Shown here: positions 46,888 to 49,769 of the stretch, one piece after another
How the letters are laid out: each line of letters starts with the position of its first letter
How positions within the stretch are numbered: position 1 is the stretch's first letter
DNA from: Mycobacterium sp.
GTDB taxonomy: Bacteria; Actinomycetota; Actinomycetes; Mycobacteriales; Mycobacteriaceae
Assembly: GCA_036273375.1 (NCBI GenBank)
Contig: DASUHS010000002.1
DNA length: 64,000 bases
Reading direction: 5' to 3' (one strand)
Program-made: the position numbers and the translations under genes
Notes under the pieces: model-generated
What the model was told of the DNA's origin: nothing
Seen by the model: only the letters and a program-made list of their open reading frames with translations
The model's database searches: none

Positions 46888-47289
46888 TCAGAGCCCGGCG
46901 ATCACGATGACGACGCCCGTTACTGTCGCCACGGCGAGTGAGATCAGCAGAACACCGACGATCCCCTCCTTCGCCGGCAAGGTCGCGTGGTCGCCCGCCG
47001 CGATCGGCGCGAGTTTGCGGCCGGCACCCCATGCCGCCGCCAGCAGTGTTGCCAACCAGTTGGCGTAGGCGGCGTAGACGATCAGAGCGACTGCCGTGAC
47101 TCCCCACGCGTGTGGTAAGTGGGTGTGCGGCCAGAGCAGGCCGAGCAGCACGAGAAACATGCCGTTGAGGACGCCCTCGAGGTGGCTCGATAGCGCCATG
47201 CGCGGGTTCTTCAATGCGAGGACGGCGAACCCGGTGGGCAATGCGAAACACCCCCGGTCCCTTACGGATCCGGGGGTGTTCCCTTTCAT
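46888..47289 (-). CDS. Small integral membrane protein (HabA/hydroxylaminobenzene-mutase-like by pattern)
   Basis: 133 aa. ...LKNPRMALSSHLEGVLNGMFLVLLGLLWPH...YAAYANWLATLLAAAWGAG.... The family call is from memory of the motif only. The N-terminus looks short for the family. Confidence 0.45.
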   Translation of the reverse strand: MKGNTPGSVRDRGCFALPTGFAVLALKNPRMALSSHLEGVLNGMFLVLLGLLWPHTHLPHAWGVTAVALIVYAAYANWLATLLAAAWGAGRKLAPIAAGDHATLPAKEGIVGVLLISLAVATVTGVVIVIAGL

Positions 47290-47302
47290 GGTGGCTTGAG
47301 CG

Positions 47303-47488
47303 TCAGCGTCCGGGTGGAGAGTACGACGGAGTCGTCACGGTCGTGGTCGGTGTGGACGTCGTGGTCGGGGTGCTGGTGACCGTCACCGTGCTGGTGCTGG
47401 TGCTAGTAGAAGCCGGTGGCACCACGGTGGTGGTGGTGCTCGTCGTGACGCTGGTGGTCGACGACGTCGTCGTCGCGGACGACGCCGC
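47303..47488 (-). repeat. Low-complexity (ACC/ACG/AGC/GTC-rich) tract encoding the SodC S/T tail
   Basis: [61 protein letters not shown]. Confidence 0.8.
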
Positions 47489-48064
47489 GATCACACCGCA
47501 AGCCAGCCGCTTGCCCGATTCACCCGTGGGGGCGGTGGTGCCCAGATTATCCGCGGTCTGGTGGAGGATCAGCGCGGTGCCCGAGCTGTTTCTCAGGTCA
47601 GCGGAGGTGAACGCGTTACTGGTGGTGACCAGTTTCGCCGAGCCGTCGGAGCGCACTTGCAAGGCGGTCAGGTCGCCGCTGGCGGGGTAACTCGTGTGAT
47701 TTGCCGCCTGGTAGACGCTTCCGGCGGAGTCGAAGTCCCCGCTCGATCCTCCGTTCGGGGCGGCCGAATTGGCCTCGCATTTGCCCACCGCATGAATTTG
47801 CAGCCCGTGGAAACCGGGGCTGAGCACTTGGTTGGGCCCGGCTTCCACGGTCACTGTCGCATAGCCGTTGGCGAACTCGAAGGTGGCGTTGGCAACCGGA
47901 CTGCCGTCGGCGGTCTTCAGCTGGGTGGTGAGCCTCTCGGCCCCCGGTGTCGAGCTGGTCAGCGGTGACGTGTTGGGCTGGCTGCCTTGCTGGTTTGAGC
48001 ATGCGGCGAGCGGTGCGATGGTCGCGGTGAGCGCCGCGACCGCAAAGCATGCGGCCTGGTTCAT
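47303..48064 (-). CDS. sodC: Cu,Zn superoxide dismutase lipoprotein with a Thr/Ser-rich C-terminal tail
   Basis: Lipobox ...[23 protein letters not shown] (Cu His pair), ...ILHQTADN..., ...RLACGVI. After that point there are 61 further residues, almost entirely T/S/V/P. Confidence 0.88.
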
Positions 48065-48102
48065 TTGCGGTGCCTACCCACATTGGCCCGCGCCGAAACG
48101 GC

Positions 48103-48288
48103 CTACTCGGTGGGCTTGCGCACCTCGTTGGCCAGGTCGCGGTAGTCCCAGACCAGGTCCACCACCTCTTGCGCGGCCCGCCCCGCCGCTCCGGCGACCA
48201 GGCCCACGATGCGCCCGAGGTGCGTCGCCGTCGTGTTCACGGCCTCAAAAACGTTGTTAATAGCGCGATCTGACACCGTGTCGGGCAT
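48103..48288 (-). CDS. Small hypothetical protein (61 aa)
   Basis: ATG 48288 is preceded by GGAGGGG with 9-nt spacing. Product: MPDTVSDRAINNVFEAVNTTATHLGRIVGLVAGAAGRAAQEVVDLVWDYRDLANEVRKPTE. No family recognised. Confidence 0.4.
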   Translation of the reverse strand: MPDTVSDRAINNVFEAVNTTATHLGRIVGLVAGAAGRAAQEVVDLVWDYRDLANEVRKPTE

Positions 48289-48369
48289 CTGCGTTTCCCC
48301 TCCGGTTGCGTGTCCACGTTCGGTCAACACTCTGTCGACAGTACCGTTCAAACCACGGCCCCGCCGCGC

Positions 48370-48855
48370 CTACGTCCTAAGGGAGCTCAGCAGCGCCTTG
48401 CGGCTTCGGACGCGGAACTTGTTGATGGGGGATCGGTGTAACCGAACGATGCGCTCGGCCATTCGGTTTCCCAGCGCGTCGAGCATGTCCTCACTCAAAT
48501 CTATTGGGGCCGGGCATAAATCACGCTCTTCTTCGCTGGCATGGGCGTCCAGAACCGTGACGAACGAACGCCATTCTTCCGCGTACTCCGCCGCCGCGGG
48601 CGACGTGCGCAGCAGCACCGCCAGCTGATCCCAAACCTGCCTGTGCTCCGCATGGGCGATGGCGACCAATGCGCTGGCCTCCGATACCGCCGGGTAGAAC
48701 AAGTCGTCCTCGATGCGCATGTGGATGTCCAGCTCGATCAGCAGTTCATCGAGCGCGTCTTGCCGCTCGCCGCTATCCGCCGGTATATCGGTGATCTTGG
48801 CGCAGAGCTCGCGTAGAACTTTGTGATGCTCGAAAAGCACCTCGTAGGCATTCAT
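48370..48855 (-). CDS. Hemerythrin (HHE cation-binding) domain protein
   Basis: 161 aa: MNAYEVLFEHHKVLRELC...LDIHMRIEDDLFYP...IAHAEHRQV...LDAHASEEERDL. The His/Glu ligand spacing fits hemerythrin. Start ATG 48855 overlaps the upstream stop (ATGA). Confidence 0.8.
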   Translation of the reverse strand: MNAYEVLFEHHKVLRELCAKITDIPADSGERQDALDELLIELDIHMRIEDDLFYPAVSEASALVAIAHAEHRQVWDQLAVLLRTSPAAAEYAEEWRSFVTVLDAHASEEERDLCPAPIDLSEDMLDALGNRMAERIVRLHRSPINKFRVRSRKALLSSLRT

Positions 48856-49769
48856 TTCGCCACTCCGAGGACTTCGACGAACCCGTCGCGAATCCGCACC
48901 GGGTAGTTCGGCAGCGCCGCTGTTGCCGGTCCGCGCAGCACGTCGCCCGATCCGCACGCGAATCTGGAACCATGCCACGGGCATACGATTCGGCCGCGTT
49001 CGATCCACCCGTCACTCATCGGTGCGCCGAGGTGCGGACAGCGCTCACCGACCGCGATCACCTGGCCGTCGGTGCGATACAGAACCACGCCAACGCCGCC
49101 TACCGCTACCCGCCGCGGCTGGCCGTCGAGCGCGGCGGCGGGCAGCACCGGCATCCAGCGGTCGCCTCCCAGTCGGGCGCCGGACCGGTCCACGCCGGTG
49201 CCCGCGCCGAACACCAAAGCCCCGCCAAGGTAGCCGCTGGCGAGGGTAAGGCCATAGCCCAGCGCGCTGCTTGCCATCCCGCGCCGGTTGCGGCCGCGGC
49301 GGCGATCCCACCACGACGCCGCATAGAGCGCGGTTGCGACTGCGTTGAGCCCGCCATGGACCAGGCCGATGCGGCGCGATCGCTCATGGGTGTGCTGCCA
49401 GTCCGTCACGCCGGTCGCAGCGGCGCCGACGCTTCCCACGAGTGCGACACCCAACGCGAACCTCGACCCGTCACGCAGTCGGGCGGCACTCCCAGGCAGC
49501 ACGCTGGCCGCATCCATGACGAGCGTCGTCGCCACCGCGCCGGTCGGCACCGACGTCAGCGCCGGGTGCAGCGGATGGCCGAGCCAGGTGCCGTGCAATG
49601 CGTTGCTGACTCGATCGCGGTTGCGGCCCAGGGCCGCGAACAAGAACGTCAAGGCGTGCTCGAGGCGATAGCTCGGCCGATCCAGCCAGGCCTGTCGCCC
49701 CAGGGTTGTCAGCACGGTAGGCCCGGTACTGCGGACCCGATTTTCGAAATGTTGCCACCGATTCGCCAT
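48852..49769 (-). CDS. Membrane DUF2231-like domain fused to a Rieske [2Fe-2S] domain
   Basis: 305 aa. N-terminal part: HGTWLGHPLHPALTSVPTGAV plus further TM helices. C-terminal part: CPHLGAPMSDG...CPWHGSRF (the CxH...CxxH Rieske motif). Confidence 0.8.
   Translation of the reverse strand: MANRWQHFENRVRSTGPTVLTTLGRQAWLDRPSYRLEHALTFLFAALGRNRDRVSNALHGTWLGHPLHPALTSVPTGAVATTLVMDAASVLPGSAARLRDGSRFALGVALVGSVGAAATGVTDWQHTHERSRRIGLVHGGLNAVATALYAASWWDRRRGRNRRGMASSALGYGLTLASGYLGGALVFGAGTGVDRSGARLGGDRWMPVLPAAALDGQPRRVAVGGVGVVLYRTDGQVIAVGERCPHLGAPMSDGWIERGRIVCPWHGSRFACGSGDVLRGPATAALPNYPVRIRDGFVEVLGVAK

Follow-up and report, generated by a model that had tools for sequence, protein, structure and literature searches.

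The 64,000-nucleotide stretch of DNA analysed here, called the window in what follows, comes from a soil-metagenome Mycobacterium (contig DASUHS010000002.1) that is most closely related, among sequenced genomes, to Mycobacterium sp. 852002-51971 and M. colombiense. Five minus-strand genes lie close together at positions 46,888 to 49,769 and encode, in the order of transcription, a membrane protein in which a DUF2231 domain is fused to a Rieske [2Fe-2S] domain, a hemerythrin-like di-iron protein (HLP), a 61-residue protein, a SodC-like lipoprotein and a small membrane protein of the styrene oxide isomerase (SOI) family. A preliminary description, made from the sequence alone, had proposed that the five genes form one transcription unit, an envelope redox module beside whiB3. 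The packing on which this proposal was built is borne out by reading of the sequence: the first two genes share an ATGA overlap, the third has a Shine-Dalgarno sequence, and the gaps are 81 nt from the HLP gene to the 61-aa gene, 38 nt from there to the sodC-like gene and 13 nt from the latter to the SOI-like gene. The domain-level identities of the genes likewise stand (Pfam PF09990, PF00355, PF01814 and PF00080). When genomes were scanned with an alignment of the Rieske fusion, relatives turned up in at least 580 species; 80 loci, drawn from many phyla, were examined, and about 90 related loci, numbered below with the prefix L, were compared in all. It was found that the units of the cluster have been inherited separately and form a mosaic in a variable gap between whiB3 and groEL1, and that the DUF2231-Rieske and HLP genes are the sole obligately linked unit, translationally coupled, in a pairing so far unreported in the searchable literature.

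The HLP gene lies directly downstream of the Rieske fusion, on the same strand, at 49 of the 80 loci. Every actinobacterial locus of the set has the pair (Mycobacterium, Microbispora, Blastococcus, Modestobacter and Propionibacteriales), and the non-actinobacterial loci that have it are one metagenome-assembled genome (MAG) of Vulcanimicrobiota and Geminicoccus. The 4-nt stop/start overlap seen in the window occurs in 34 of the 49 pair loci, and in the rest of those that could be measured the gap is 56 nt or less. In Geminicoccus harenae (L070:7995-9455) the DUF2231, Rieske and hemerythrin domains are joined in one open reading frame (ORF) of 486 aa, a Rosetta-stone fusion of both window genes. 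The matrices of pairwise identity of the Rieske and HLP proteins are correlated with r = 0.97, none of 2000 Mantel permutations giving a value as high, and in two MAGs with two copies each every copy retains its own matched pair. Taken together, the data speak for a partnership of the two proteins that is dedicated, both physically and functionally. Clustering of the ORFs across the 80 loci in search of a further shared neighbour returned just shadow ORFs and clade-specific synteny. The published HLP papers mention no Rieske or DUF2231 neighbour, and the earlier statement that no system of such a composition has been characterised holds for the DUF2231-Rieske/HLP pair within the literature that could be searched. 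In another MAG (L020:8001-9215) the Rieske frame extends about 300 nt beyond its usual stop, across the HLP gene, which is probably due to a frameshift or an assembly error.

In the Rieske fusion the N-terminal region is conserved and is followed by four predicted transmembrane helices (TM1 to TM4, at residues ~67-89, 95-125, 129-157 and 161-188); the C-terminal Rieske domain occupies residues 205-301. DUF2231 (PF09990) matches residues 64-194 with 62.6 bits against a cut-off of 26.4, and a literature search gave no described function for this domain. The [2Fe-2S] ligands C244, H246, C263 and H266, in the motifs C-P-H and C-P-W-H, are invariant in the 80 homologues, which belong to several phyla; H65, H68, D86, D123, W124, H138, N142 and R156 are likewise invariant, the first two forming part of a WLGHPxHP motif. 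As read from the sequence, the Rieske motifs CPHLGAP and CPWHGS contain no second Cys, i.e. the extra cysteine pair of the bc1/b6f type is missing, and the domain superposes on the soluble Rieske ferredoxins of dioxygenases with TM-scores of 0.89 (2QPZ) and 0.90 (5BOK). It is a domain of the ferredoxin type, nearest in sequence and fold to the Rieske ferredoxins of oxygenase systems. With these proteins (NDO ferredoxin 2QPZ, CarAc, BphF and T4moC) it shares the fold, at TM-scores of 0.8-0.9, the CxH...CxxH ligand pattern and the lack of the bc1-type disulfide cysteines. It differs from them in being fused to the four-helix DUF2231 domain, in having a partner of hemerythrin fold, and in that no reductase or oxygenase gene is found nearby in the window. 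The Rieske ferredoxins themselves are dedicated to supplying non-heme-iron or di-iron enzymes with electrons, one at a time. Toluene 4-monooxygenase hydroxylase is a di-iron enzyme. Its electron-transfer complex with T4moC is available as PDB 4P1B.

The second protein of the pair is, to judge from its sequence, a member of the class formed by Rv2633c and the HLP of M. kansasii (PDB 6Q09). It scores 60.7 bits with PF01814 (cut-off 25.3), its residues 1-159 align with residues 10-170 of 6Q09 (E = 4e-50), a span that corresponds to the five helices of the class, and it shares with the known proteins the length of 161 aa, 55% identity in the full-length alignment and the same seven di-iron ligands at identical residue numbers, H11, H45, E49, Y54, H71, H105 and E109. 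The set of 4 His, 2 Glu and 1 Tyr is intact in 49 of the 49 Rieske-linked HLPs; Tyr54 stands at the place where hemerythrins have His. The window HLP belongs to a paralogous clade, which carries Met46, whereas the M. kansasii/Rv2633c clade carries the outer-sphere Phe46. Residue 46, as Phe stacked on His71, has been reported to control the mu-oxo bridge and the reactivity towards NO; in the protein from A. vinelandii other bulky hydrophobic residues were functional at this position, Met not being among those tried. In M. triplex, M. palustre, M. simulans, M. ahvazicum and others, the orthologues of the crystallised protein from M. kansasii (85-91% identity) are likewise encoded immediately downstream of a DUF2231-Rieske gene. 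The activities published for HLPs in vitro are a weak catalase and an NO-peroxidase, with no multiple turnover with NO alone, and the published work names no redox partner. Proteins of the Rv2633c type are induced in macrophages, and the literature has regarded the class as stand-alone and confined to pathogenic or opportunistic mycobacteria. In contrast, the loci surveyed here extend the class to soil mycobacteria, Microbispora, Blastococcus, Modestobacter and others, each time paired with the Rieske fusion; for the class as a whole, a membrane Rieske protein is almost always encoded alongside. An assignment of the window HLP to the NCBIfam 'PA2171 persister protein' was rejected, the score of 62.9 bits being below the cut-off of 190.

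The best explanation of these data, held with moderate confidence, is a mosaic cluster with a coupled DUF2231-Rieske/HLP unit in which the Rieske protein would be the electron-transfer partner of the HLP at the membrane. Electron exchange is the most economical mechanism for such a partnership; it is this transfer, together with a role of DUF2231 and a cytoplasmic location, that we infer. The low-potential, ferredoxin-type [2Fe-2S] cluster would serve as a dedicated one-electron partner of the di-iron site, and the Rieske protein would keep the HLP at the membrane, the latter cycling through its diferric, mixed-valent and diferrous states during the turnover of H2O2 or NO. The His/Asp/Trp cluster of DUF2231 (H65, H68, D123, W124 and H138) is a candidate link to the membrane redox pool, to a bound metal or to haem. 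The precedent is found in the Rieske ferredoxins by which non-heme-iron and di-iron oxygenases are supplied with electrons. Several observations weigh against this interpretation. The AlphaFold2 model of the fusion has a pLDDT of 70.7 overall and below 50 at the WLGHPLHP motif, which makes the placement of the His cluster with respect to the Rieske centre uncertain; no inter-domain distance was taken from it. In Bacteroidota, Acidobacteriota, Chthoniobacterales, Chloroflexota and others no hemerythrin gene was found within 8 kb of the Rieske fusion, and the genes downstream of it in the other phyla are unrelated to one another and include no common neighbour; outside Actinobacteria, therefore, some function of the Rieske fusion needs no HLP. 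Furthermore, M. tuberculosis Rv2633c is active as a catalase and is not known to have a DUF2231-Rieske neighbour.

The strict one-to-one coupling with an Fe-S protein would also suit a dedicated protector, i.e. a maintenance factor similar to RIC/YtfE that neither donates nor accepts electrons but repairs or protects the Rieske [2Fe-2S] cluster after damage by NO or H2O2. A published structure paper ranks the HLP domain of E. coli YtfE, a di-iron protein of Fe-S repair, as the one nearest to the mycobacterial HLP, and the NCBIfam model of RIC, TIGR03652, gives a weak match (E = 0.0011). However, the score of this match is 18.8 bits against a cut-off of 204.7, the ligand set of HLP is a different one (Tyr54) and goes with a published catalase and NO-peroxidase chemistry of its own, and in many phyla the Rieske fusion does without HLP; such a repair role is considered very improbable.

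What the Geminicoccus fusion shows is that Rieske domain and HLP share one side of the membrane, whichever side this is. In favour of the cytoplasm are a Rieske domain of ferredoxin type, an HLP that has no signal peptide and a long Arg-rich N-terminus: in the window protein this N-terminal region has 64 residues, 9 of them Arg, and the hydrophobicity profile is devoid of a fifth helix. The Rieske domain is thus probably cytoplasmic, and in the four-helix topology H65, H68, H138, D123 and W124 would share its side of the membrane. The loop between TM3 and TM4 points the other way. Across the 80 homologues it contains on average 4.6 Lys and Arg residues with a net charge of +4.0, the invariant R156 usually being followed by Arg or Lys; by the positive-inside rule for short loops this Arg-rich loop should be cytoplasmic, and the Rieske domain would be outside, away from the signal-less HLP. 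TM4 is rich in Gly and Ser, with a Kyte-Doolittle value of 0.82, and the segment that follows it is net negative. This segment has three Arg in the mycobacterial proteins and a mean of 0.4 Lys and Arg in the non-actinobacterial ones.

An extracytoplasmic Rieske domain could result from joint insertion by Sec and Tat, as in actinobacterial QcrA, with the Arg-rich loop as the Tat motif; the HLP would then be exported too, hitch-hiking with the Rieske domain or as the fused form, or would bind the cytoplasmic loops as a sensor or regulator and not as an electron partner. An Arg-rich loop before a weakly hydrophobic, Gly/Ser-rich last helix and a negative segment after it are features known from substrates of joint Sec/Tat insertion (Tooke et al. 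2017, PMC5449189), and the same paper lists a five-helix actinobacterial Rieske homologue in which an RR motif precedes the last helix. With QcrA and the other proteins of that kind the window protein has in common the polytopic anchor, the C-terminal cofactor domain, the position of the Arg-rich loop before a weak last helix and, in mycobacterial members, positive charges after this helix, and the Geminicoccus fusion fits export as well as it fits the cytoplasm. On the other hand, the 64-residue N-terminus with its 9 Arg would need to be translocated with no signal to direct it, unless there were a fifth helix, of which the profile gives no trace; this long, charged N-terminus argues instead for an N-in/C-in topology. 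The spacing of the RR motif is atypical, since it lies 7 residues before the hydrophobic stretch with charges between, and in some members RG or RK stands in its place. The domain resembles cytoplasmic ferredoxins and not Rieske proteins of the high-potential bc1 type, and the disulfide that exported Rieske proteins have is missing from it; genes for cytochrome b or c partners are lacking; and the HLP, signal-less, has been studied as a soluble protein. Export of the Rieske domain is therefore regarded as unlikely, and the cytoplasmic location is retained as the probable one.

The features of the cluster are collected in Table 1. The sodC-like, 61-aa and SOI-like genes are neighbours with their own control signals and not subunits of the pair.

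Table 1. Features of the cluster and its whiB3 border, with positions in the window
Feature	Position	Strand	Remarks
DUF2231-Rieske fusion	48852-49769	-	305 aa; PF09990 62.6 bits, PF00355 77.7 bits
Hemerythrin-like di-iron protein (HLP)	48370-48855	-	161 aa; PF01814; start overlaps Rieske stop (ATGA)
61-aa protein, predicted helical	48103-48288	-	GGAGG Shine-Dalgarno upstream
sodC-like 5' element (...GTTTCG...CAATGTGGGTAGGCACCGCAA-ATG)	48065-48102	-	kept across relatives
SodC-like lipoprotein	47303-48064	-	253 aa; PF00080 82.9 bits; lipobox LAAC, residues 20-23
Stem-loop right after the sodC-like stop codon	47245-47282	-	candidate terminator or RNA-stabilising hairpin
SOI-family small membrane protein, 5'-truncated	46888-47289	-	133 aa; homologues carry PF26512
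whiB3	49929-50258	-	159 nt upstream of the Rieske gene

The lipoprotein had been taken for a Cu,Zn superoxide dismutase (SOD). Its lipobox and Sod_Cu domain are present, but the full set of four Cu-ligand His residues and an equivalog-level score are not. The His of the SAGGH motif is a copper ligand in Cu,Zn SODs. In all nine copies of this locus type (the window and eight orthologues) SAGGH has become SAGSV (SAGSVY in the window), the bridging His being replaced by Val, whereas M. tuberculosis and M. smegmatis SodC have the motif intact; with this ligand missing, the SOD activity of the SodC-like protein is uncertain. In the PDB the protein is closest to the SodC subunits of the supercomplex CIII2CIV2 of mycobacteria (7RH5_D and 6ADQ_Y) and to M. 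tuberculosis SodC (1PZS), and the score with the NCBI equivalog model of SodC, NF047631, is 191.1 bits, below the cut-off of 230. The similarity to mycobacterial SodC (Rv0432; 7RH5/6ADQ; 1PZS) extends to the lipoprotein nature, the Cu,Zn-SOD fold, 57% core identity to the M. tuberculosis protein, the disulfide cysteines and three Cu-ligand histidines; the differences, besides the Val and the equivalog score, are the loss of 14 residues ahead of the last strand and an extra C-terminal tail of about 58 aa, rich in Thr and Ser and ending in PPGR, both shared by the SodC-like copies. The protein is probably a paralogue and not the housekeeping SodC. The subfamily with Val in place of His was seen at loci L001, L002, L004, L005, L010 and L081-L084, and it occurs in genomes of the M. 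avium complex (MAC).

Upstream of the sodC-like gene a 38-nt element (48065-48102, CAATGTGGGTAGGCACCGCAA-ATG) is kept in the window and in L001, L002, L005, L010 and L081, whatever precedes it, be it the 61-aa ORF, the Cys-rich ORF of M. nebraskense or the HLP gene. It may be a promoter, a leader or untranslated region, or an operator. After the gene comes a hairpin of -38.5 kcal/mol over 86 nt (RNA folding against shuffled sequences, z = -2.66). Its sequence is identical in the soil relatives L085 and L086, where it is intergenic; in the window it falls inside the annotated start of the next ORF. A terminator scan flagged the complementary strand of the hairpin (+, 47259-47276). The RNA folds of the other intergenic gaps of the cluster were no better than those of shuffled sequences.

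The small membrane gene does follow the sodC-like gene after 13 nt, but its ATG at 47289 and the gap itself are products of a deletion. The DNA alignment with L085 and L086, which are 96% identical, revealed an in-frame loss of 144 nt at about 47234-47243, a form that is supported by unitigs from the source sample. The lost segment holds a -10-like TACTGT 6 nt before the native ATG, this ATG and transmembrane helix 1; in the relatives the hairpin lies within a spacer of about 150 nt at this place, and in the protein alignment the 17-25 N-terminal residues of the window protein are replaced, giving a chimeric N-terminus that begins within the hairpin. The SOI-like gene of this genome, whose family is of the haem type, is a deletion remnant. 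The family of this 133-aa ORF is labelled elsewhere 'hydroxylaminobenzene mutase' or 'hydrogenase', and PF26512 ('SOI') is precomputed on the window protein and its homologues. A sequence search of the PDB with the family found nothing, the match coming from the fold search alone: the model of an intact homologue, P0122, has four helices (pLDDT 85), and its top PDB match with Foldseek is the styrene oxide isomerase 8PNU (probability 1.0, TM-score 0.59, E = 0.08). An invariant His36 and Asn42, both retained in the window copy, are spaced by +6, as are H58, the haem ligand, and N64, the catalytic Asn, in SOI. While PF26512, the four-helix fold and the His/Asn spacing are shared with SOI, the identity is 17%, no genes of a styrene or nitroarene pathway are found nearby, and the window copy is without helix 1.

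The 61-aa gene is real and under purifying selection, with a dN/dS of 0.17-0.19 against L001 and L002 and a third-position bias. Among 1.84 billion proteins its product has 31 representative relatives, none with a Pfam family, and it belongs to a small unannotated family. At this locus the gene occurs in the window, L001 and L002 only, and is absent from L005, L010 and MAC. In M. nebraskense (L005:9419-9832) the slot between the HLP and sodC-like genes is filled by a Gly/Ala-rich ORF of 137 aa with a C-terminal run of CxxC-like cysteines, which could be a metal-binding peptide.

The separate inheritance of the units is seen in the way they assort. Beside whiB3, the Rieske-HLP pair was found alone (L003, L007), with the sodC-like gene and no SOI gene (L001), with both sodC-like and SOI genes (MAC genomes, M. 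colombiense, M. nebraskense and L010) and, in M. heidelbergense, with a 1.4-kb insert containing a divergent LysR-type gene. Conversely, the whiB3-groEL1 gap contains the sodC-like and SOI genes without the pair in M. parascrofulaceum (L090/L091), and SOI alone in M. conspicuum (L088/L089), with a ParE/Phd toxin-antitoxin pair nearby. In all other clades the pair is located elsewhere, with no whiB3, sodC or SOI nearby. Gene turnover seems to be concentrated in this gap. As regards the survey of neighbourhoods that the preliminary description had called for, co-occurrence of the Rieske fusion with HLP is confirmed and the four-gene order recurs in MAC and relatives, but co-occurrence of all members is not conserved.

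That all five genes are one operon and an envelope module, in which SodC dismutates superoxide, the HLP removes the H2O2 formed, and the DUF2231-Rieske protein and the small membrane proteins carry electrons, is a reading with a coherent chemistry, as the product of SOD is a substrate of HLP, whose catalase and NO-peroxidase activities are published. The genes are co-directional with short gaps, and MAC, M. colombiense, M. nebraskense and L010 repeat the order Rieske-HLP-sodC-like-SOI. Contigs of a soil metatranscriptome from related strains cover parts of all genes, one of them spanning the junction of the 61-aa and sodC-like genes and another running through the sodC-like stop and the hairpin. 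These contigs, however, have a depth of 2-3, are about 90-95% identical and may contain DNA; they show that the genes of the cluster are expressed in soil in related strains and are too sparse to settle the operon structure. Against a single operon stand the independent assortment of the units among genomes, the conserved 5' element and strong 3' hairpin of the sodC-like gene, the position of the SOI-like gene in the intact relatives about 150 nt downstream with a TACTGT of its own 6 nt before the ATG, its truncation in the window, the uncertain SOD activity of a protein without the bridging Cu-ligand His, and the extracytoplasmic location of the lipoprotein as opposed to the signal-less HLP. 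The claim of one five-gene transcription unit and module was accordingly not upheld; of the grounds named beforehand for abandoning it, a lack of conserved co-occurrence and independent promoters or terminators between the genes, the first was found and the second is represented by candidate signals. A single operon is quite unlikely, and the five genes of the proposed envelope redox module are at best loosely associated, stress-related neighbours in particular lineages. A search of public RNA-seq runs gave no match for the window organism and, for the M. colombiense locus, the soil metatranscriptome only; a scan with the sigma-70 consensus promoter gave no match either, this consensus being uninformative for mycobacteria.

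The cluster does lie beside whiB3 in the window, at 159 nt, but the link to a redox sensor that had been read into this position did not hold, the adjacency being restricted to one clade (7 of the 49 pair loci) plus MAC. Since whiB3 adjoins only where the pair occupies the whiB3-groEL1 gap, the adjacency is purely positional and a functional link was rejected. In MAC (L081-L084, 4125-4777) an opposite-strand GreA-like gene and a 51-aa ORF, absent from the window, stand between whiB3 and the Rieske gene. Beyond whiB3 the window continues with an Rv3415c-like gene, sigD and rsdA, and on the far side of the cluster with an FAD monooxygenase, two HAMP-adenylate cyclases, a short-chain dehydrogenase/reductase (SDR), a RidA-like gene, groEL1 and tsaD/B/E. 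In M. tuberculosis whiB3 and groEL1 are adjacent; the cluster therefore occupies a variable gap of about 9 kb between two conserved blocks. In the same variable region the two adenylate cyclase genes, tandem paralogues at 41522-43042 and 44054-45577 with 71% identity, flank the SDR gene.

It is tempting to speculate that the pair represents a widespread actinobacterial system of membrane-linked detoxification, in which a Rieske protein connected to menaquinol or to a metal or haem would recycle the HLP for the removal of NO and H2O2, Rv2633c being an orphan without its natural reductase; this is put forward tentatively, as a possibility about which we remain doubtful. In a bolder version the Rieske protein and the HLP would be co-exported by Sec/Tat and would act in the envelope beside the SodC-like lipoprotein. 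For the MAC members of the SodC-like subfamily, whose bridging His has given way to Val, annotation as a working Cu,Zn SOD is unwarranted without an assay. The survey corrects the published view of the HLP class as stand-alone and confined to pathogenic mycobacteria. What is new is the pairing of DUF2231-Rieske with HLP, which gives DUF2231 its first functional context and bears on the role of the Rv2633c-type proteins, since it offers these HLPs a concrete candidate for their electron partner.

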